64,000 nucleotides of DNA from an uncultured Actinomycetes bacterium (GTDB lineage: Bacteria; Chloroflexota; Dormibacteria; Aeolococcales; Aeolococcaceae), in NCBI GenBank assembly GCA_964508345.1, contig CAZDTK010000009.1:14489-78488 (forward strand), written 5' to 3'. The translations under genes were made by a program, and so were the position numbers. Under the pieces are notes generated by a model. The model was given only the letters and a program-made list of their open reading frames with translations, was not told the origin of the DNA and made no database searches. Shown here piece after piece: positions 7,569 through 43,733 of the stretch; within the stretch, counting starts at the first letter, position 1, and the number at the start of each line of letters is the position of its first letter.

Positions 7569-8147
7569 TCACCCCGCCACGGAACGCGGCGGGGAAGGGG
7601 CCGGCCGGCTGACCGCTGGGTGGCCGGCCCAGGCGAGGCGGAGCGGCTGCTCGGTGGCCCGGCTGATGCCCACGCGGGGGCCGATCGCGAGCGGCACCTC
7701 CGCCTCCCGCCGGATGAGGCGAAGCCGGGCGGCAGGGTCGCAGAGGTCCAGCCCGTTGTCGGTGAGGCTCAGCCCCAGGCCGGTGCCCAGGTTGCCAGGG
7801 CCGCGGAGCAGGGCGGGGGCGGGGAGCCGGGCGGCGGCGCCGCCGCGGCGCGCCCGCACCACCTCCTCTCCCCTCTCCACGCTGGCCGCGCGGAGCAGCA
7901 CCGCCCCCGCCACGCCGGCCGGCTCGCAGACCACGTTGGCGCAGAAGTGGACGCCATAGGAGAGATAGACATAGAGGTGTCCGGGAGGGCCGAACATCAC
8001 CGCCGCCCTGGGGGTGGGGCCGCGGTGGGCGTGGGAGGCGGGGTCGTCGCGCCCCAGGTACGCCTCCACCTCGACGACGAGGGCCTCGACGTGGCGGGGC
8101 GTGCCCGGGTCGCAGACGATCCGAGCCCCCACCAGCTCGCCGGCCAC
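7569..8147 (-). CDS. mpg: DNA-3-methyladenine glycosylase (Mpg/AAG family)
   Basis: 192 aa; 'VEVEAYLG..DPASHA..GHLYVYLSYGVHFCANVV' matches the Mpg family core. Confidence 0.8.
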   Translation of the reverse strand: MAGELVGARIVCDPGTPRHVEALVVEVEAYLGRDDPASHAHRGPTPRAAVMFGPPGHLYVYLSYGVHFCANVVCEPAGVAGAVLLRAASVERGEEVVRARRGGAAARLPAPALLRGPGNLGTGLGLSLTDNGLDLCDPAARLRLIRREAEVPLAIGPRVGISRATEQPLRLAWAGHPAVSRPAPSPPRSVAG

Positions 8148-8194
8148 CGCGAGGGTGGAGCGGGCGAAGAAGGCTCGCCTGAGCGCCGTCCGGC

Positions 8195-8920
8195 TCAGCC
8201 CGCCGCCTGGTCCAGCCGGTCGATGCGGTAACCGACCCCGAAGACGGTCGTGATGCGGAATGGCAGCCTGTCGAAGCGCTCGAACTTCTCGCGCAGCCAG
8301 CGCACGTGCACGTCCACGGTCTTGTGATCGCCGTAGAACTTGCTGCCCCAGATCCGCTGGATGATGACCTGGCGCGACTGCACCTTGCCGGCGTTGAGCA
8401 GCAGCAGCGAGAGCAGGTCGAACTCCTTGGGCGCGAGATGCAGCTCCTCACCGTCGACGTGCACGGTGCGGGCCCCGCGGTCGATCCGGAAGTTGTCCAT
8501 CTCCTCGATCTCGCGACCCGCCACACGCTCCTTGACGGTCATCTCGGCGCGCCGCAGCATCGCCGACACGCGCGCCAGAAGTTCGTTGAGGGAGAAGGGT
8601 TTTGTCACGTAGTCATCGGCGCCGACGTGGAGTCCGACGACCTTGTCGAGCTCGCTTCCCTTGGCGGTCAGCATGATGATCGGCACCGTCATCTCCTGGC
8701 GGAGGATGCGGCACACCTCGAGACCCGAGAGCTCGGGGAGCATGAGGTCGAGCAGGATGAGGTCGGGACGCTGCCGGCGGGCCGCGGAGAGGGCCTCCGT
8801 GCCGGTGCTCGCCTCGGTGATGACGAAGCCCTCCTGGCTCAGGTTGTAGCGCAGGGTCTGCCGGATGGAGTCCTCGTCTTCGACGATGAGCACGTGCTTG
8901 GCGGGCGAAGTGGTCATCGG
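8195..8920 (-). CDS. OmpR/PhoB-family two-component response regulator (PhoP/PhoB-like)
   Basis: Receiver 'HVLIVEDEDSIRQTLRYNL...DLILLDLMLPELSGLEVCR...MLTAKG' followed by a winged-helix domain '...RIWGSKFYGDHKTVDVHVRWLREKF'. The start is placed at 'MTTSPAKHVLIVEDE' (the ORF track starts 16 codons earlier). Lies next to the pst operon. Confidence 0.85.
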   Translation of the reverse strand, partial: PMTTSPAKHVLIVEDEDSIRQTLRYNLSQEGFVITEASTGTEALSAARRQRPDLILLDLMLPELSGLEVCRILRQEMTVPIIMLTAKGSELDKVVGLHVGADDYVTKPFSLNELLARVSAMLRRAEMTVKERVAGREIEEMDNFRIDRGARTVHVDGEELHLAPKEFDLLSLLLLNAGKVQSRQVIIQRIWGSKFYGDHKTVDVHVRWLREKFERFDRLPFRITTVFGVGYRIDRLDQAAG

Positions 8921-10506: not shown

Positions 10507-11271
10507 ATGGAGGGGACGGCGGCGGGCGTCACCGTCCAGGACCTCAAGGTCCGCTTCAAGGACAGCGAGATCCTGCACGGGATCAGCACCGTCTTCGAGC
10601 CCAACAAGGTCACCGCCATCGTGGGACCGACCGGGTGCGGCAAGACCACCCTGCTGCGGGCCATCAACCGCATGCACGATCACGTCACCGGGATGCGCGT
10701 GGACGGGTCGATAGTGGTCGAGGGCGTTGACATCTACGGCGCGGAAATCAACGTCCGCGAGGTGAGGCGCCGGGTGGGCATGCTCTTCCAGCGCCCCAAC
10801 CCCTTCCCGCGCAGCATTGCCGAGAACGTGGGGCTGGCGCCGCGGGCTCACGGCCTCGCCAACCGGTCCAACGTCCAGGAGCTGGTCGAGGATCAGCTCA
10901 AGCTGGTGGGGCTCTGGGACGCGGTCAGCAACCGCCTGGGCGGCTCCCCCTTCGGCCTCTCCGGGGGCCAGCAGCAGCTGCTCTGTCTCGCCCGCACCCT
11001 GGCGCTCTCGCCCAACGTGATCCTGCTCGACGAGCCGACCTCGGCGCTCGACCCCGACACCACCGAGCGGATCGAGGCGCTCATGAAGACCCTCTCCGAG
11101 AAGATGACTGTCCTCATCGTCACCCATAACCTGGCCCAGGCCAGCCGCATCAGCGACAACGTGCTCTTCCTGATGAAGGGCGACGTGGTCGAGTCGACGT
11201 CGGCCCGGACCTTCTTCCACGACCCGGCCGACGAGCGGAGCCGGGCGTACGTCAGCGGTCGGATCGGATGA
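10507..11271 (+). CDS. pstB: phosphate ABC transporter ATP-binding protein PstB
   Basis: Walker A 'GPTGCGKTT', signature 'LSGGQQQ', Walker B 'ILLDEPTSALD', and 'FFHDPADERSRAYVSGRIG' is the PstB C-terminus. The start is chosen at 'MEGTAAGVTVQDLKVRF' because the ATG at 10303 gives a 68-aa extension with non-coding-like codon usage. Confidence 0.85.
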   Translation: MEGTAAGVTVQDLKVRFKDSEILHGISTVFEPNKVTAIVGPTGCGKTTLLRAINRMHDHVTGMRVDGSIVVEGVDIYGAEINVREVRRRVGMLFQRPNPFPRSIAENVGLAPRAHGLANRSNVQELVEDQLKLVGLWDAVSNRLGGSPFGLSGGQQQLLCLARTLALSPNVILLDEPTSALDPDTTERIEALMKTLSEKMTVLIVTHNLAQASRISDNVLFLMKGDVVESTSARTFFHDPADERSRAYVSGRIG

Positions 11272-34933: not shown

Positions 34934-35643
34934 CACGCGGAGGGCGGCGCGACCGAGCGGTAGTCGGTGTGCCCGTCGAAGATGCCGCGGCGCGACGGGG
35001 GGAGGACCGCGGCAATGCGCTGCATCAGCAGGTCGGCGGCGTCCTGGTTGGTGAGGCGCGCCCCCTGCGGGCTCTCGTCGGGGAGGGGGGCCGCATCGCC
35101 GAAGTGCAGGTGAGCAGGTGCCCGGCGCGGCCATTTCGCGCCCAGCGGGAGGACGCGCTCGGTCCCCCAGAGGGCCACGGGCAGGATGGGCACGCCGGCC
35201 ATCCGGGCCAGGAATCCGGCCCCGGGGTGGGGACGCTGGAGCCGCCCGTCCGGGCTGCGGTGGCCCTCGGGGTAGACGAGCACGGCGTGGCCCTGACCGA
35301 TGAGGTCGAGCACCTGGCGCAGGGCGGCGCGATCGGGCGTCCCGCGGACCACGGGGAAGGCGTGGTAGCCGACGATGAAGAAGCGCCCGACGGCGGTGCG
35401 GAAATAGTCGCTCTTGGCCATGAAGTAGAGATCCCGGCGCGGGAAGTAGGCGCCGGTGAAGGGCGGGTCGACGGTGCCCGCGTGATTGCTGACCACCAGC
35501 AGGCCGCCGCTGCGAGGAACGTTCTCGACCCCGCTGACGTCGATGAGGCCCCCGACCACGAGCCGGGAGAGCCCCCGGATCACCGTCGTCATCCAGCGGT
35601 AGTTGACGTCGCGGCCGGAGGGCGCGGCGTGGGGGCGGGTCAC
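34933..35643 (-). CDS. plsC: 1-acyl-sn-glycerol-3-phosphate acyltransferase
   Basis: 'VVSNHAGTVDPPF' (the HxxxxD-type acyltransferase box, NHxxxD here) and 'VLVYPEGHRSPDG' (EGTR-like box). Confidence 0.85.
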   Translation of the reverse strand: MTRPHAAPSGRDVNYRWMTTVIRGLSRLVVGGLIDVSGVENVPRSGGLLVVSNHAGTVDPPFTGAYFPRRDLYFMAKSDYFRTAVGRFFIVGYHAFPVVRGTPDRAALRQVLDLIGQGHAVLVYPEGHRSPDGRLQRPHPGAGFLARMAGVPILPVALWGTERVLPLGAKWPRRAPAHLHFGDAAPLPDESPQGARLTNQDAADLLMQRIAAVLPPSRRGIFDGHTDYRSVAPPSA

Positions 35644-36323
35644 CCGGGACGCCCCGGCGCACCCAGCCCGGCTGCCGCGCAGTGCGAGAGGGCGAGGTCG
35701 ACCATCTCGTCGATGCCGTGCAGGCCAGTGTCGATGATCACGGCACCGGGCGCCGCCGCGAGGGCGGGGGCGTCCACCTGGTCACGCCGAACGATGGAGG
35801 AGTGCAGCGTGTCGGCGTCGATCGCCGACCCCTGGCTTTCGAGCTGAGCCGCGCGCCGCGCGGCCCGAAGAGATGCCGCAGCGTCGAGATAGAGTTTGAC
35901 CGCCGCATCGGGGAAGACCACGGTGCCGCAGTCGCGCCCGACCGCCACACCTCCACCGGCGGCCGGCGCCCTCTGCAAGGGAAGCAGGAGCAGCCGGACG
36001 TTGGACATCCGGCCGATGGCCGTGAGGAGCGCCGTGTGCCGAGGGTCGCGGATCTCGGATCCGGGATCCGCACCGTCGATGCGCACGTGCCAGCTGTCGT
36101 CGGAGGGGTCGGTGTTGACCTCGATGGAGAGATGCGCCGCAAGTCGGGCGATCTCGCCGACGTCGGCCTCGTCGAGCCCCGCCTTGACGGCGGCGGCCGT
36201 GACCGCACGGTAGAAGAGGCCGGTGTCGATGAACGGCAGACCCAGGGCCAGGGCCAGGCGCCGGCCCAGGGTCGATTTGCCGCTTCCCGCCGTGCCGTCA
36301 ACGGTCACCACGGGGACGCTCAC
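35640..36323 (-). CDS. cmk: cytidylate kinase
   Basis: 'VVTVDGTAGSGKSTLGRRLALALGLPFIDTGLFYRAV' P-loop and the CMP-binding region. Confidence 0.9.
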   Translation of the reverse strand: MSVPVVTVDGTAGSGKSTLGRRLALALGLPFIDTGLFYRAVTAAAVKAGLDEADVGEIARLAAHLSIEVNTDPSDDSWHVRIDGADPGSEIRDPRHTALLTAIGRMSNVRLLLLPLQRAPAAGGGVAVGRDCGTVVFPDAAVKLYLDAAASLRAARRAAQLESQGSAIDADTLHSSIVRRDQVDAPALAAAPGAVIIDTGLHGIDEMVDLALSHCAAAGLGAPGRPG

Positions 36324-39218: not shown

Positions 39219-39821
39219 GTGGCGATAGGCTCCTGCCGGCTCGTGGGGCTGGATGGAACGCACGGCGTGGGCAAGACCTCCGCCGCTCTCGCACTCACAT
39301 CGAAGCTCCAAGCCAGAGGATTCGTGGCGAGGTGCGTGCCCGAGGTGGTGCGGACCAGCCCCTACTTCGACCAAGGCACGCTGCGGTGGCCCGGGCCGGC
39401 CGGCGAGCTGGACGTCTTCGGGGAGCAGATAGCCGCCGAGCAGCGGGCAGCCATTGGCTGTGAGGTACTCATCTGCGACCGCACCGTGCTCAGCGCGATC
39501 GCCTACTGGCAGGCACGGGTGACGCGCGGGCGAAACTCGGAGACGGCACTGCTGCGCGCCGCGGTGGCGTTCGCCCGGGCTTATGCTCGCCTCTACGACC
39601 TGTTCTTCCTCATGAACGTGCCCCTCTCGGGCGCGCCGGCCGACGACGGCTTTCGCGTGAGGGACCCCGCCTTCCAGGCGCAGATGGCCAACCGGATGCG
39701 CAGTCTGTGCCAGAAGCTCGACGTCGCCGCCGAACCCCTGCCGCTCGCCGAGTCCCCGGACGCGACTGCGGATCGAATGATCCTGCGCATCGATCAGGCT
39801 GGATGGCGGCCCGACCACTGA
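39219..39821 (+). CDS. P-loop NTPase / nucleotide-kinase-like protein (island gene)
   Basis: Walker A 'GLDGTHGVGKTSAALAL', a Walker B-like 'VLICDRTVL', ~200 aa. GTG start preceded by AGGAGGGG. Codon usage is noticeably lower in GC3 (ATA, AGA, CAA, ACA, GGA) than neighbouring core genes. Confidence 0.7.
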   Translation: MAIGSCRLVGLDGTHGVGKTSAALALTSKLQARGFVARCVPEVVRTSPYFDQGTLRWPGPAGELDVFGEQIAAEQRAAIGCEVLICDRTVLSAIAYWQARVTRGRNSETALLRAAVAFARAYARLYDLFFLMNVPLSGAPADDGFRVRDPAFQAQMANRMRSLCQKLDVAAEPLPLAESPDATADRMILRIDQAGWRPDH

Positions 39822-39929
39822 CGCCATGGGGACTTCGCCGATCGATGCTCCGACGCCGGGGGCAGAGCGCTCCTGTCGATCCGGGGTGTCGGTAGTGGGG
39901 TTGTTTGAGACGCGCCCAGGTCGACAGTA

Positions 39930-40025
39930 GGCGGCCCGCAACCCCTACCCGCGGACCCCGGCGATGGCCGCCGGCGTGGCCGACCACGTCTGGCGGATCG
40001 AGGAGATCGTCGGACTGCTAGCGTA
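39930..40025 (+). pseudogene. transposase C-terminal remnant
   Basis: A short frame opening just after a TAG encodes 'AARNPYPRTPAMAAGVADHVWRIEEIVGLLA*'. The '...MAAG.TDHVW..EE..' tail is a recurrent C-terminal motif of DDE transposase fragments. There is no N-terminal part. Confidence 0.3.
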
Positions 40026-40031
40026 GGGGCC

Positions 40032-40235
40032 GTGGCTCAAGCCTCTAAGTTCCGGCGAATCAGGCGCGAATGGTTTGATGCTGGTTGCCCACCTTGCGAG
40101 CACAAGTACACCGACAAGGAGCACGAGCTGGGCGCCCAGACGGGTGACCGGGGCTGCCTTGGGTGCGGCGATACTTGGTGGGCCGATGGTCCCGCGCCCC
40201 AGCCGTGGCGAGGCGGCGATCCCCCTCCGATCTGA
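40032..40235 (+). CDS. possible small zinc-ribbon ORF (island)
   Basis: 67 aa with 'CPPC' ... 'CLGC' (CxxC-x17-CxxC). GTG start with AGGGG 6 nt upstream; low-GC3 codons consistent with the island. Weak evidence. Confidence 0.25.
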   Translation: MAQASKFRRIRREWFDAGCPPCEHKYTDKEHELGAQTGDRGCLGCGDTWWADGPAPQPWRGGDPPPI

Positions 40236-40414
40236 TCCTCTTCTGAAACTGACCCACTACCGGGGTGTCGGTCGCCTGGACGAGCGCCGACTCGCCCTGA
40301 TATGCTCGCGCCGCGATGGCTCGGCGACAACGCCAATCGACAGGCTCCCTGTTCACCATCGCGCCGCCCGCCTTCACCGACGTCCGCCCGGCGGCCGGGC
40401 TCGGAGATTGACAG

Positions 40415-40960
40415 GTGTCAGGGCCCCTGACCTCCTCCCAGATTCGCAAGAGGATTGACGATTCTGGACTTGTGCGGCAGGCCGACGCGCGCTCCTTCGC
40501 GCCGGCCAGCTACGAGATGCGCGTCGGCAGCTACTACAGCCCGGCGGAAGGGGAGCCCATCTCGCTGGTTGCCGGAGACGGGGTGGCGCTGGCGCCCGGC
40601 GGTTTCGTGCTCATCGGCACCCTGGAGGAGGTGTCTCTTCCACGCGACATCCTGGGCATGATGTATCTGCGATCCACCTATGCGCGACGTGGGTTCTCCG
40701 ATTGGTTTCAGGGCCTGGTCGACCCCGGCTACCGCGGGGCCCTGACGGTCGCACTCCACAACCTGACGGATCACCCGCTGGTCATCCTGGGTGGTGATCG
40801 CATCTGTCACCTTCTCTTCTACCCGCTCGACGAGATGACGGACGAGTACGACGGCCGGTACCAGGGGTCCACGGCCGCCACCCCTGACGCCTATGGGGAT
40901 CGGGAAGTGAGCTCGTTCCCGATCGTGGGAGCTCCGCGGCAGAGTGTGGGCCCCCCATGA
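40415..40960 (+). CDS. dCTP deaminase-family protein (dUTPase-fold, Dcd-like)
   Basis: 181 aa; 'MYLRSTYARRGFS...LVDPGYRGALTVALHNLTDHPLVILGGDRICHLLFYPLDE' aligns with the Dcd catalytic Ser / Asp-Pro-Gly region and the C-terminal beta-strand. Confidence 0.8.
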   Translation: MSGPLTSSQIRKRIDDSGLVRQADARSFAPASYEMRVGSYYSPAEGEPISLVAGDGVALAPGGFVLIGTLEEVSLPRDILGMMYLRSTYARRGFSDWFQGLVDPGYRGALTVALHNLTDHPLVILGGDRICHLLFYPLDEMTDEYDGRYQGSTAATPDAYGDREVSSFPIVGAPRQSVGPP

Positions 40961-41567
40961 CGGTGCCCCACGATGGCCACGCGCTGCCGAGCGCGCAACG
41001 CCGGTGAGGGGGCTGCCCTCCGCCGCCGCGGGTGGCCGCCGGCGGCCCGACAAGCAGACATACAACCTCCTGCTTGCCGTCGCGGCACGAAGTCGTGCCG
41101 ATTGTCTGGACCGGCGGGTCGGAGCGATCATCACTCGGGATGATCGCGTGCTGAGCACGGGCTACACGGGCACGCCCTTCGGCATGCCCAACTGCTCTCA
41201 GGGCGGGTGCGCCCGCTGCGCTGCGGGGCCGCTGGACGGCGCCCCGCTCACGGGGGGCTACGACGTCTGCCTGTGTGTGCATGCCGAGCAGAACGCGATA
41301 CTTCACGCCAGCCGCTTCGGACAGCAAACGCTGGGCGCGTCGATGACATCGACGCTGCAACCGTGCTTCGGGTGCCTGAAGGAGATGCTGCAGGCAGGGA
41401 TCGAGGAGGTGCGCTTCCTCCATTACCGCCGCACGGGAGATGCCTACGACGACCGGGAGCTAGAGGTTCAATACCTCGCCCTGCAGAGTCGCTTTCGCGT
41501 ATTTGACCAGGTCGGCGACGAGAGCGCCGATTCGGAGGATCTCTTCGCCAGCTTCACCGGGAGTTGA
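40944..41567 (+). CDS. dCMP/cytidine deaminase, zinc-binding (CDA fold)
   Basis: 'VGAIITRDDRVLSTGYTG...' and the zinc ligands 'CVHAEQNAI' and 'PCFGC' (H(A/C)E ... PCxxC). Overlaps the dcd-like ORF by 17 nt. The start is perhaps GTG ~41004, because the first ~20 codons of the ORF-track ORF are Arg-rich. Confidence 0.8.
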   Translation: MWAPHDGAPRWPRAAERATPVRGLPSAAAGGRRRPDKQTYNLLLAVAARSRADCLDRRVGAIITRDDRVLSTGYTGTPFGMPNCSQGGCARCAAGPLDGAPLTGGYDVCLCVHAEQNAILHASRFGQQTLGASMTSTLQPCFGCLKEMLQAGIEEVRFLHYRRTGDAYDDRELEVQYLALQSRFRVFDQVGDESADSEDLFASFTGS

Positions 41568-41621
41568 TCCTGCAGGATGGACGCCCGCTGACTTGTCATC
41601 GAAGGCCTGAGGAGGCTTGCC

Positions 41622-42611
41622 GTGTCCGATGGGAGGATGCTCGCCGGGAGCACGCTTGCGACGGTTCTGAAGAGCGGTCGTGTTTTCCATCCCGACACCG
41701 TTGCCGACGGGAACATCGGTGCCGTCTCCTACGATCTCCGCCTCGCTGCCGAGCACACCTTCGTGACCGGCGATCCCAAGCCTGAGCCCGGCGGAGGGAT
41801 ATTCCTGAAGCCGGGGGAGAGCGCCTTCGTGTGCACCATGGAGCGCGCGCAGTTCGCCTGGGACGTTGCGGGGATCATCAGCGCGCCCTTCAGTCTGTCA
41901 TCCCGAGGGCTGCTCATCCTTCACGGACAGGTCGTCGATCCGGGCTATGGCCTGCGTCTGATCAACGGGGGGTGGGTGCCCTGCGAGGACACTCGACTCC
42001 ACCTGGTGTTCGCCAATGTCGGAGGCCGTGAGGTGACCCTCGCGCCGGGAGAGACGGTGGCGTCTCTGCAGCTGTTCGACGTCGAGGCGTTGCCGCCGGC
42101 CCAGCGACGCGAGATCGTGGCACCGACCCCAGGGCGGCCACTGGCGTTCTTCAGTCAGGCAGGTGTGGTCCTGCAGTCCGCGACGCGCACGCTGCGCAGG
42201 GCAGAGAGGCAGCAGGTGCAGATTGACAAGGCGGTGGCTCGGGTGACGACGGTGGAGAGAGGCTCCAGCTTCGTTGTCACGTTCGGGGTGTTCTTGGTGA
42301 CCGTGACGCTGCTCGGCGTCGTGCTGACGCTTCTGCTGCAGACCATGATCAACTTCCCGAAGCATCCTCCGCTGGATCTGGTGGTCACGGCGATCGTCGG
42401 CGGCGCGGTGGTTGCCCTGGGCACCCTCGCCGCGGTGGCGATCGGCCTGATGCACCTTGCCCGGATGAGCGCGGAGCCTCAGTTCCGGGCGACGTCCTCC
42501 GACGCCTCGGCGCCCGGCGAAACCGGGGAACCCGGGTCGCCACCGATCGCCAGCGACACGGCGCGGTCCCCGTCCGGTCCCGACGTTCCCGGGCGCCCGA
42601 CCCTCCCCTAG
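41622..42611 (+). CDS. Dcd/dUTPase-fold domain protein with C-terminal coiled-coil and two transmembrane helices
   Basis: The N-terminal ~170 aa 'AVSYDLRLAAEH...GIISAPFSLSSRGLLILHGQVVDPGYGLRL...LVFANVGGREVTLAPGETVASLQLF' repeat the Dcd motif order. Then comes 'TRTLRRAERQQVQIDKAVARV', then the hydrophobic helices 'VVTFGVFLVTVTLLGVVLTLLL' and 'LVVTAIVGGAVVALGTLAAVAIGLM', then a Pro/Ser-rich tail. The TAG stop lies inside the IS target duplication. Confidence 0.75.
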   Translation: MSDGRMLAGSTLATVLKSGRVFHPDTVADGNIGAVSYDLRLAAEHTFVTGDPKPEPGGGIFLKPGESAFVCTMERAQFAWDVAGIISAPFSLSSRGLLILHGQVVDPGYGLRLINGGWVPCEDTRLHLVFANVGGREVTLAPGETVASLQLFDVEALPPAQRREIVAPTPGRPLAFFSQAGVVLQSATRTLRRAERQQVQIDKAVARVTTVERGSSFVVTFGVFLVTVTLLGVVLTLLLQTMINFPKHPPLDLVVTAIVGGAVVALGTLAAVAIGLMHLARMSAEPQFRATSSDASAPGETGEPGSPPIASDTARSPSGPDVPGRPTLP

Positions 42612-42612
42612 C
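42607..42612. repeat. target-site duplication CCTAGC (left copy) of IS481-family element
   Basis: The identical 6-mer CCTAGC immediately flanks both inverted repeats. It matches the NCTAGN target preference described for IS481-like elements. Confidence 0.6.
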
Positions 42613-43733
42613 ATGCACGGCTTTCGAGATGTAGAGACACCTGGGGGGCTTCCCCAGACATAGAGAAGCGACCCATCCTCGGGGTGTTCAAGGTCCTGAG
42701 GAGGGTCGCCCGTGACCAATGATGACCTGCTCTACCGGCACCGGGTCAAGTTGTTCGCGCGGGCACGAGAGGTGGGGGTGACACAGGCCTGCCGGGAGTT
42801 TGGGTACCACCGCTCCAGCTACTACCGGCTGCGCCACCAGGTGCTGCGCCAGGGGCTGGAGATGCTCCGCCCCCGGGAGCGCCGCCGGCCGCGGATGCCC
42901 AACTAGGTGCCGCCCTGGCTGGAGGAGCGAGTGGTCGCTTTCGCCCTGGGTCACCCCGGCCTGGGCCCGCGCCGGATCGCGGCCCAGCTGAGGCAGCCGA
43001 TGTGGGGCGGCCTGGTGATCTCGCCGAGCGGCGTCTACAGCGTCCTCGGCCGCCACGGCTTGCGCACCCGTGGAGCCCGGCTCTCCCTGGTGGCGGGGTA
43101 TGCCGCCCCACACGAGCCACAGCCGCCGCCCCGGCTCGCTCCCGGCCATCTGGAAGCCAGCGTGCCGGGGGAGCTCGTCCAACTCGATTGTTTCCACATC
43201 GGCCGGCTCACCGGCACCAAGGGCCGGGTCTGGCAGCACACCGCCATCGACGTGGCTAGCTCCTTCACCTGGGCGGAGATCCACGTGACCCCGCTCAACC
43301 CCGCCGCCCGCCACACCTCGGCCCTGGTGCGCCGGGTGGCCGCTGAGCTGGCCGCCGCGGGCTGGAAGCTGCAGGCCGTCTCCACCGACAACGGCTCGGA
43401 GTTCCGCTCCCAAGAGTTCCGCCGGGCGGTGCAGGCCACCGGCGCCCAGCAGCGCTTCATCCGCGCCGGCCGGCCCCAGACCAACGGCTGCGTGGAGCGA
43501 GTCCAGCGGACCATCCTTGAGGAGTGCTGGCGACCCAGCTTCGCCCGCTCTCTGGTGCCCAAGGTGACGGCCCTGCAGCGCGACCTGGTCAAGTACCTCG
43601 CCTACTACAACTTCGAGCGCGCCCACACCGGCCTGCGCACCGGTGGCCTGACCCCCGCAGCTCTGGTCTACGGTGCTAGAAAGATGAGGCCCCGGTGAGC
43701 CGCTTCTGTCGCCTCATCTTGGAATCCGTGCAC
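42613..43733 (+). mobile_element. IS481-family insertion sequence (~1.1 kb) with imperfect terminal inverted repeats
   Basis: IRL 'ATGCACGGCTTTCGAGATG' (42613-) matches the reverse complement of IRR 'GTGCACGGATTCCAAGATG' (-43733), 15/19 nt. The internal transposase has the IS481-type N-terminal HTH ('LFARAREVGVTQACREFGYHRSSYYR') and an rve DDE core. Confidence 0.75.
42712..43698 (+). pseudogene. IS481-family transposase interrupted by an in-frame TAG (codon 65)
   Basis: ORF 42712..42906 (HTH) and ORF 42907..43698 (DDE core 'LDCFHIG...TDNGSEF...' with the D, D, E region) are in the same frame, separated only by TAG at 42904-42906 ('CGG ATG CCC AAC TAG GTG CCG CCC'). Confidence 0.6.

Follow-up and report, generated by a model that had tools for sequence, protein, structure and literature searches.

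The window analysed here, a stretch of 64,000 nucleotides of contig CAZDTK010000009.1 from an uncultured Actinomycetes bacterium, carries a gene (41622-42611, + strand) for a protein, designated here DCD-2TM, in which a head of the Dcd/dUTPase fold is joined by a stalk helix to two C-terminal transmembrane (TM) helices. As far as sequence can tell, it would be the membrane effector of a nucleotide-centred candidate defence that lies outside Dcd, dUTPase, AvcD, Kongming and DS-4, because defining features of each of these were checked and are lacking. Our reading, offered tentatively, is that the protein would sense a deoxypyrimidine nucleotide as the membrane effector of a mobile nucleotide-based candidate defence, and the family to which it belongs is probably part of an undescribed anti-phage system. 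What began as a curiosity of one window has become a well-delimited protein family whose gene context is reproducible. The unusual architecture and the plausibility of a defence-type role, both raised in the original prediction, are upheld, the latter by the genomic context, and no description of this architecture or operon was found in the literature. The parts of the gene are the following.

41609-41615 (+): Shine-Dalgarno sequence GAGGAGG, 6 nt 5′ of the GTG, supporting 41622 as the start codon
41622-42611 (+): DCD-2TM gene, 329 amino acids (aa), an intact open reading frame (ORF) with a GTG start
41640-42077 (+): Dcd/dUTPase-fold domain, aa 7-152, from Pfam DCD, a PDB profile search, Foldseek and residue mapping
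42138-42269 (+): hinge (GLxFF; here RPLAFF) and heptad-repeat stalk helix, aa 173-216, from AlphaFold2 and family conservation
42270-42350 (+): TM1, aa 217-243, Kyte-Doolittle hydropathy up to 2.65, motif VVxFGV(F/Y)Lxx(x)TxLG
42372-42470 (+): TM2, aa 251-283, Kyte-Doolittle hydropathy up to 2.31, low column information
42471-42608 (+): disordered Pro/Ser-rich tail, aa 284-329, predicted local distance difference test (pLDDT) <50 over 289-329

One public gene call (P0163) starts at an alternative ATG at 41637.

The architecture is that of a family of at least 267 clusters and not a chance fusion. A HMMER search against 1.84 billion cluster representatives gave 3244 matches, 267 of them at E <1e-30 (clusters of 50% identity), and nearly all of the best 150 matches are of ~300 aa and align from the head to TM2; a word-indexed search recovered 14 relatives. 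Exactly two C-terminal hydrophobic segments occur in 137 of the 161 members collected. Since the copies in the window lineage are identical in DNA, the ratio of non-synonymous to synonymous substitution rates (dN/dS) was taken from two moderately diverged family pairs, where it amounts to 0.07-0.12 in the head, the stalk and the TM region each; all three are under purifying selection. It is these last two results that make the architecture more than a product of chance. Named members come from metagenome-assembled genomes (MAGs) of Longimicrobiaceae and Schlesneria and of Actinomycetes and Dormibacterota, the groups represented among the family MAGs being Actinomycetes, Dormibacterota, Gemmatimonadota and Planctomycetota, and a scan of genome contigs with two peptide patterns placed the gene in the genomes of at least two species. 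Searches of IMG/VR, 50,697 phage genomes and 72,556 PLSDB plasmids gave no member of the family, and PADLOC has no model for DCD-2TM or for the thymidylate synthase-like (TS-like), Ham1 and HAD partners described below.

That the N-terminal domain has the Dcd/dUTPase fold, as had been predicted, is borne out at the level of both sequence and structure. Pfam DCD (PF22769) matches aa 7-152 at E=3e-8 (34.4 bits against a cut-off of 27 bits), and a profile of 14 homologues finds Dcd-like dUTPases and dCTP deaminases in the PDB at 1e-10 to 1e-5. The AlphaFold2 monomer model has a mean pLDDT of 79.9, most of the head exceeding 90 and being rich in β-strands; Foldseek aligns the head at E ~1e-9 with a target TM-score of 0.7-0.8, the top matches being Mycobacterium tuberculosis Dcd-dUT, E. 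coli Dcd and the dUTPase of Thermococcus pacificus (2qlp, 2v9x, 8y1w).

Residues were mapped by a MAFFT alignment of the 161 members to E. coli Dcd (MG1655). The catalytic Glu of the E. coli enzyme, E138, corresponds to V129 and is L, V or I across all members, an assignment with which the hidden Markov model alignment to 9ln0 agrees; H127 (His or Tyr in the family) lies two residues upstream of this position. In place of S111 there is F90, with Phe in 131 of 161 members, so that of the "catalytic Ser region" claimed in the original prediction the motif region is present but the Ser itself is not. R115 has become S94, at a position variable in the family. The C-terminal lid (motif V; the Y..KY..Q region) is absent, and after aa 155 come the hinge, the stalk helix and TM1. 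With a hydrophobic residue at the Glu position, Phe for Ser111 and the stalk in place of the lid, the head is, by its residues, not a dCTP deaminase; it scores 27.1 bits against the NCBIfam equivalog for that enzyme (TIGR02274), for which the cut-off is 92.8. Members are annotated at source as "dCTP deaminase (domain-containing protein)" or as "hypothetical protein", and the former name is, judged from the alignment, wrong.

The portion of the site that contacts the sugar has fared differently. The sequence D128-P-G-W131 of E. coli Dcd corresponds to D106-P107-G108-Y109, in which P107 and G108 are conserved, and motif III of the trimeric dUTPases is thus present as V105-D106-P107-G108-Y109. 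In this motif the Asp binds the 3′-OH and serves as the catalytic base in dUTPases, while the aromatic residue stacks on the deoxyribose; from a reading of the motif alignment we take D106 to be the equivalent of dUTPase D90. The position of D106 is Asp in 124 and His in 26 of the 161 members, that of Y109 is Tyr or Phe in 158, and N141 and E95 of E. coli are invariant in the family (N132 and E74 here). Following DPGYG is a family-specific insert of ~13 aa with a conserved Trp, and then come the conserved R125 and H/Y127. The Arg-Ser of motif II is replaced by P89-F90 (K/R-F in the family), and there is no C-terminal arm. The head probably still binds a 2′-deoxynucleotide, and the variability of the Asp mildly favours a role in binding rather than catalysis, a change to His in 26 of 161 being unusual for a catalytic base and acceptable for what may be a binding residue. 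The suspicion that the domain lacks catalytic residues and is an inactive scaffold is therefore right as to the deaminase Glu, and goes too far in the word scaffold, motif III Asp and Tyr being kept in most members.

The membrane-proximal half of the protein also agrees with what had been predicted. Hydropathy (Kyte-Doolittle means over 19 residues) peaks at 2.65 in aa 217-243 and at 2.31 in aa 251-280, and AlphaFold2 draws a single helix, 174-243, unbroken from the stalk into TM1, with a second helix at 251-283; the two C-terminal TM helices are thus supported. So are the charged coiled coil and the Pro/Ser-rich tail, by the heptad spacing, the continuous AlphaFold2 helix and the disorder over 289-329. 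The hinge is conserved at L174, F176 and F177. Among the 161 homologues the stalk is hydrophobic at positions 180, 183 and 187 and again at 197, 201, 204, 208 and 211, with charged residues between, and this 3/4-spaced pattern of a/d type constitutes a heptad pattern across the family. As a predicted coiled coil it is compatible with a trimer without being proof of one.

Nowhere in the protein is conservation higher than in TM1 (F221 in 143, G222 in 154, L225 in 130 and T229 in 110 of 157 sequences; V218, V219, V223, F/Y224 and G232 are further conserved positions). A plain anchor would be expected to vary, whereas TM1 is the best conserved part, and its pattern suggests specific helix packing or a pore-lining function. 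Since the hairpin has basic residues at either end and its two helices are joined by a short loop, inspection by eye places both the N- and the C-terminus in the cytoplasm, presumably. A pair of Arg residues shortly after TM2 is conserved in the family, where the window protein has R289 followed by A290. The Pro/Ser tail is absent from most homologues and specific to the window lineage, and no Pfam family covers the part of the protein that follows the head. Several known membrane families were considered for the TM region and rejected: Phage_holin_3_6 matches at E=0.095 with 13 bits against a 28-bit cut-off, MARVEL reaches 17.7 of the 32.8 bits needed, and the matches to the Colicin_V and holin-X Pfam families are sub-threshold and inconsistent across members, holin-X appearing weakly in only two of 14.

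The neighbourhood census comprised 23 distinct loci, in which the following partner genes accompany DCD-2TM.

TS-like protein, ~330-345 aa: 15 of 23 loci, stop and start codons often overlapping
P-loop kinase (AAA_17, AAA_28 or AAA_33): 9 of 23 loci
HAD or NT5C phosphatase: 9 of 23 loci
Ham1/RdgB-type pyrophosphatase: 7 of 23 loci
NUDIX hydrolase: 1 of 23 loci
dCMP deaminase: 2 of 23 loci, the window and L007, the pair being 50% identical
Soluble DCD-like protein: 2 of 23 loci, the window and L016

The recurrent gene order is HAD, DCD-2TM, Ham1, TS-like, kinase. The original prediction had suggested that the membrane protein could pair with the soluble Dcd encoded upstream of it as sensor and effector, a proposal to which the census gives no support in that form: such a gene occurs at two loci only, and the two proteins concerned are not orthologous (19% identity, E=0.037). 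The recurrent partner is instead the TS-like protein. In the TS-like proteins the nucleophile C146 is retained, as are the phosphate-binding R126, R127 and R166, and in all eight examined there is Asp at the position of N177. Asp at this position separates dCMP hydroxymethylases from dUMP-specific thymidylate synthases, as is known from the mutagenesis literature. Their top phage relatives, at 31% identity, are annotated "pyrimidine hmase". The Ham1 partners, too, keep their catalytic Asp pair. Because the TS-like proteins retain C146, the Arg residues and Asp177 and the Ham1 proteins their Asp pair, the operons appear to encode enzymes that make an unusual nucleotide as well as enzymes that degrade it. 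What the partners have in common would be conversion of deoxycytidylate (at C5 or C4), combined with a kinase for the anabolic and Ham1 and HAD for the catabolic steps.

Every TS-like partner is extended at its C-terminus by ~110 aa (e.g., L010 3513-4511 and L005 6973-8004), a stretch which is absent from ThyA and from the phage hydroxymethylases and could be a partner-binding or regulatory domain. A third operon flavour is seen with the closest relatives of the window protein (P0003; L008 2399-3277 and L009 837-2357), next to which lie genes for a B12-binding radical-SAM enzyme, an AAA_28 kinase and a 292-aa protein without a family match.

Defence genes and mobile elements are found next to several of these operons. 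At L005 and L006 a complete Hma system (helicase, methylase, ATPase) is found directly 5′ of the TS-like and DCD-2TM pair, on two different contigs (spanning L005 1-8849 and L006 1-8990). PADLOC recognizes HmaB at 1e-130 and HmaC at 1e-115 in L006, and the SNF2 helicase of L005 matches HmaA among other helicase models; a functional coupling to Hma, rather than co-residence in one island, is a possibility. Genes for ParE and MazE flank L007, L016 lies downstream of a TrwC relaxase (integrative and conjugative element), and insertion sequence (IS) elements are present at the window, L002 and L008, the last being an IS1634 transposase. At several loci the operon has a G+C content at third codon positions (GC3) much below that of its flanks.

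Three of these neighbourhoods hold further observations. At L024 (3915-5608, − strand) a 431-aa PNP_UDP_1 protein of the phosphorylase superfamily matches the PADLOC model "Effector PN-superfamily" and, together with a 132-aa gene of no known family, diverges from an operon of HAD, TS-like and DCD-2TM within one low-GC3 island. L002 (7950-14779 of the Actinomycetes MAG contig CAWIHB010000004.1) contains an operon of HAD, DCD-2TM, Ham1, TS-like and kinase with a GC3 of ~0.45-0.55. It is split by two high-GC3 insertions, and DCD-2TM survives as two fragments, one with the head (7950-8663) and one with the TM part (10586-10873); the locus exemplifies an inactivated system. Finally, cmk lies near DCD-2TM genes at three unrelated loci: the window (cmk 35640-36323), L004 (8001-10682), where DCD-2TM and an AAA_33 kinase sit between aroA and cmk, and L020 (1740-4096), where DCD-2TM abuts plsC-cmk. 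This proximity could mean that the loci share a hotspot of insertion, or that the gene is functionally tied to dCMP metabolism.

In the window, DCD-2TM forms part of a + strand block, 39219-43698, which breaks into a − strand array of housekeeping genes: cmk, rluB, scpB and scpA lie to one side of it, recN, nadK, tlyA and xseBA to the other. The G+C content is ~72-75% around the DCD-2TM gene; for the block as a whole it is 0.665 against 0.71-0.76 outside, and GC3 is 0.80-0.85 against 0.86-0.95. At least 12 metagenome contigs carry a DNA-identical gene, and the four-gene arrangement is unchanged across many samples; since the same DNA-identical arrangement recurs in a dozen or more contigs, it belongs stably to the genome of a single uncultured organism of high G+C content. 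A TS-like gene is missing from the window. The remaining genes of the block are these.

39219-39821 (+): P-loop kinase-like protein, Pfam AAA_28 at 1.3e-13, ~590 bp from the DCD genes
40415-40960 (+): soluble Dcd-like protein, 181 aa, Pfam DCD at 3e-23
41004-41567 (+): dCMP/cytidine-deaminase-fold protein, Pfam dCMP_cyt_deam_1 at 8e-17
42712-43698 (+): IS element, a helix-turn-helix ORF at 42712-42906 and a DDE integrase-core ORF extending to 43698 (Pfam HTH_28, rve, rve_3)

The IS element bounds the end of the island. The soluble Dcd-like protein has archaeal dUTPases (9ln0, 8y1w) as its top PDB matches, at 3e-19 with the lid included; with Ala at the Glu138 position and both the R-S...R motif and the C-terminal YQGS lid preserved, it is predicted to be a dUTPase/dCTPase rather than a deaminase. 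The best PADLOC match of the deaminase gene is the dCTPase (anti-phage dCTP deaminase) model at 4.6e-20, while it reaches 58.7 bits against NCBIfam antiphage_deaminase (NF041025), for which the cut-off is 400. Its start is called at 40944, 41004 or 41148 in public data, giving 207, 187 or 139 aa; the shortest form would truncate the deaminase fold, and the 187-aa form (41004) or a longer one is favoured because the alignment with the L007 homologue begins near 41043.

The ~590-bp gap after the AAA_28 gene contains an apparent IS remnant. A short frame in this gap, 39950-40026 (+), ends in "...PAMAAGVADHVWRIEEIVGLLA*" and resembles the C-terminal end of what is presumably a DDE transposase. A transposase-like frame between AAA_28 and the DCD genes suggests a mosaic island, in which the transcript of the other genes may not include AAA_28. 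A 67-codon ORF at 40032-40235 (+) contains two CxxC pairs, is zinc-ribbon-like and has only sub-threshold matches in Pfam and NCBIfam; it may be spurious, because its GC3 of 0.69 is below that of every neighbouring gene. Scans of the island for repeats, promoters and terminators gave no att-like direct repeats and no convincing signals, and Rfam found no match on the island, including the 590-bp gap as a possible place for an AvcI-like RNA.

The proposal of a membrane effector that senses a deoxypyrimidine nucleotide is put forward because of the fold, a head that has lost the deaminase residues and retained the deoxyribose motif, the heptad spacing of the stalk and the conservation of TM1, the chemistry of the partners and the defence and mobile context. 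The head would trimerize like other members of its fold, giving a three-stranded stalk and six TM helices, TM2 returning each chain to the cytoplasm. During infection the partner enzymes would make a non-canonical deoxypyrimidine nucleotide, the candidates for its synthesis being a kinase paired with a TS-like dCMP C5-(hydroxy)methylase or, in the window, the kinase paired with the dCMP deaminase. The accompanying hydrolases (Ham1, and HAD or NT5C; in the window the soluble dUTPase-like Dcd) would hold this nucleotide low in uninfected cells. Once accumulated, it would bind the head, the stalk would transmit the change, and the TM bundle would open or disrupt the membrane and so abort the infection. 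If so, base-modified deoxynucleoside triphosphate (dNTP) immune signalling, of which Kongming is so far the one known example, would include pyrimidines and an output at the membrane, and the TS-like enzymes and deoxynucleoside monophosphate (dNMP) kinases of validated defence operons such as DS-4 would become easier to explain.

Several points weigh against this proposal. Close relatives of the window protein are over-represented among the loci sampled, and L003, L020 and L028 have no visible partner enzyme. Three loci lie near a housekeeping gene, cmk. A modular "effector" use of the membrane part with other heads is unsupported, as far as the profile search goes: the stalk-TM profile alone, run against 5.8 billion proteins, found only a fragment of a family member. 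Motif III Asp and the stacking Tyr are kept in most members, and hydrolysis may persist; the conserved R125 and H/Y127 could even be new catalytic residues. The window protein itself has P89 where 154 of 161 members have the phosphate-binding Lys/Arg that corresponds to R110 of E. coli, deviates further at W27 (now Val) and R33 (now Gly), and lacks a segment of ~15 aa before the hinge; P89 and the pre-hinge deletion may mean that its ligand differs or that the gene is degenerating.

The persistence of a hydrolytic motif leads to the alternative that survives best, namely a membrane-tethered dCTPase/dUTPase in the manner of T4 gp56, which we consider possible yet on balance rather unlikely. It would convert dCTP to dCMP for a partner enzyme, which in turn yields dUMP (dCMP deaminase) or 5-(hydroxy)methyl-dCMP (TS-like), so that dCTP is depleted or the dNTP pool corrupted; the TM hairpin would either localize the pathway or sense phage-induced membrane perturbation and switch the enzyme on. 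The association of a Dcd fold with a dCMP-type TS-like protein and a dNMP-type kinase, with or without dCMP deaminase, does parallel T4 gp56, gp42, gp1 and cd. The nearest solved relatives, 8y1w and 9ln0, are monofunctional dUTPases that also lack the Glu, most members retain the Asp and Tyr of motif III, and depletion of dCTP is a proven defence strategy to which the PADLOC dCTPase match of the neighbouring deaminase may be added. The state of the catalytic apparatus speaks against an enzyme: the motif II Ser is Phe, the lid (motif V) needed for efficient hydrolysis is missing, 26 of 161 members have His for the putative catalytic Asp, and the window protein is without the phosphate-binding Lys/Arg. 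TM1 and the heptad stalk are conserved beyond the needs of an anchor, and, were depletion the sole goal, a kinase encoded together with Ham1 and HAD would drive a futile cycle. If the enzyme is real, it would represent a new membrane-coupled route of dCTP depletion.

A more specific version of the proposed deoxypyrimidine-sensing effector is a trimeric deoxynucleotide-gated pore, in which the dead head would read a base-modified nucleotide derived from deoxycytidine and made as an immune second messenger by the kinase and the TS-like enzyme or deaminase of the same operon, namely 5-(hydroxy)methyl-dCTP or, in the deaminase variant, dUTP, and the three-helix stalk would open the six-helix bundle. 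In this full form we regard it as doubtful; should it prove true, it would supply a second case of immune signalling by base-modified nucleotides, this one pyrimidine-based, and ligand-gated channels would gain a new class whose sensor derives from a nucleotide house-cleaning fold.

It is improbable that the operons serve a non-immune biosynthetic or salvage pathway for a modified pyrimidine deoxynucleotide or nucleoside, for example in modification of the cell's own DNA or as an antimetabolite, with DCD-2TM as scaffold or export regulator. Phage DNA hypermodification (as in the cluster of phage MW202657) and the pathways to nucleoside natural products also draw on TS-like enzymes of the hydroxymethylase type, on kinases and on phosphatases, HAD/NT5C phosphatases would free the nucleoside, and one locus, L009, has a B12/radical-SAM enzyme. 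No glycosyltransferase, DNA-modifying or transporter genes recur, however, the family is absent from the 50,697 phage records and from IMG/VR, and the operons are small, mobile, of low GC3 and situated beside Hma, toxin-antitoxin and PNP-effector genes. Most improbable of all is that the window copy is a decaying, non-functional gene in a mosaic of IS debris, a view for which P89, the changes at W27 and R33, the pre-hinge deletion, the apparent transposase remnant at 39950-40026 and the intact IS that flank the genes, the missing TS-like partner and the broken related operon of L002 can be cited, and against which stand the intact ORF, the good ribosome-binding site, the confidently modelled head, the four-gene arrangement unchanged across many samples and the recurrence of the deaminase and DCD-2TM pairing at the distant L007.

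With the sensing of a deoxypyrimidine nucleotide by a membrane effector as the working interpretation, DCD-2TM can be compared with known systems. The best sequence and structure matches to the head are the archaeal dUTPases (8y1w; P45 9ln0/9ln3) and the bacterial Dcd and Dcd-dUT enzymes (1xs1, 2qlp), the archaeal dUTPases being likewise hydrophobic (Met) at the Dcd Glu position. These proteins are soluble, of ~155-190 aa, and possess an R-S-S motif and a lid, whereas DCD-2TM has K/R-F-S (here P-F-S), the 13-aa insert, no lid, and a stalk with two TM helices.

The dNTP pathway of phage T4 consists of the dCTPase/dUTPase gp56, the dCMP hydroxymethylase gp42, the dNMP kinase gp1 and the dCMP deaminase cd. 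The same four enzyme classes co-occur with the present family, and the TS-like proteins have the dCMP-type Asp. In contrast to T4, the family resides in bacterial chromosomal islands, its protein is tethered to the membrane, and hydrolases of the Ham1 and HAD types occur alongside it.

The TM effectors of CBASS, Pycsar and type III CRISPR (Cap14/15, PycTM, Cam1) are nucleotide-gated. They resemble the proposed effector in combining a cytoplasmic nucleotide-binding domain with a small TM module, the oligomer compromising the membrane, but there is no sequence relationship (no PADLOC match), the ligand-binding fold is another one, and a trimer is predicted here.

AvcD and related anti-phage dCTP deaminases target the deoxycytidine nucleotide pool, and the window has genes for a P-loop kinase-like protein and a deaminase of the cytidine deaminase (CDA) fold. 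AvcD is, however, a kinase-like domain fused to a zinc CDA domain, while DCD-2TM has the unrelated Dcd/dUTPase β-fold, with no CDA domain in Pfam and no match in PADLOC; the deaminase of the window is not fused to the kinase, and an IS remnant lies between the two.

DS-4 ("NTTI", from DefensePredictor) comprises a TS, a dNMP kinase, a 5-hmdU-DNA-kinase-like protein, TIR and NMAD and has been validated in E. coli; no discussion of its mechanism was found in the main text (PMC13092281). It shares with the present loci a TS-like protein with a C-terminal extension and a small P-loop kinase in one defence operon, the TS-like partner being 27% identical to the DS-4 TS over 172 aa that include the catalytic Cys. 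The related loci have no TIR, NMAD or DNA-kinase-like genes, and DS-4 has neither a Dcd-fold nor a TM protein.

Kongming consists of the adenosine deaminase KomA, the dead HAM1 protein KomB, which is the dITP sensor, and the SIR2 protein KomC (Zeng et al. 2025; bioRxiv 10.1101/2024.12.20.629578). KomA, KomB and KomC are absent from the window, and no SIR2 was seen at any locus. The likeness lies in the design: a base-modifying enzyme and a kinase step lead to a non-canonical dNTP, and the receptor has the fold of a house-cleaning NTP pyrophosphatase in which a catalytic residue is gone. In KomB the catalytic Asp has become His, whereas the Ham1 proteins of the related operons keep their Asp pair. 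The receptor has the HAM1 fold in Kongming and the Dcd/dUTPase fold here; the output is a SIR2 NADase in the one and a proposed two-TM membrane module in the other; and the chemistry concerns a purine, dA to dI, in Kongming and a pyrimidine, dC, in the present family.

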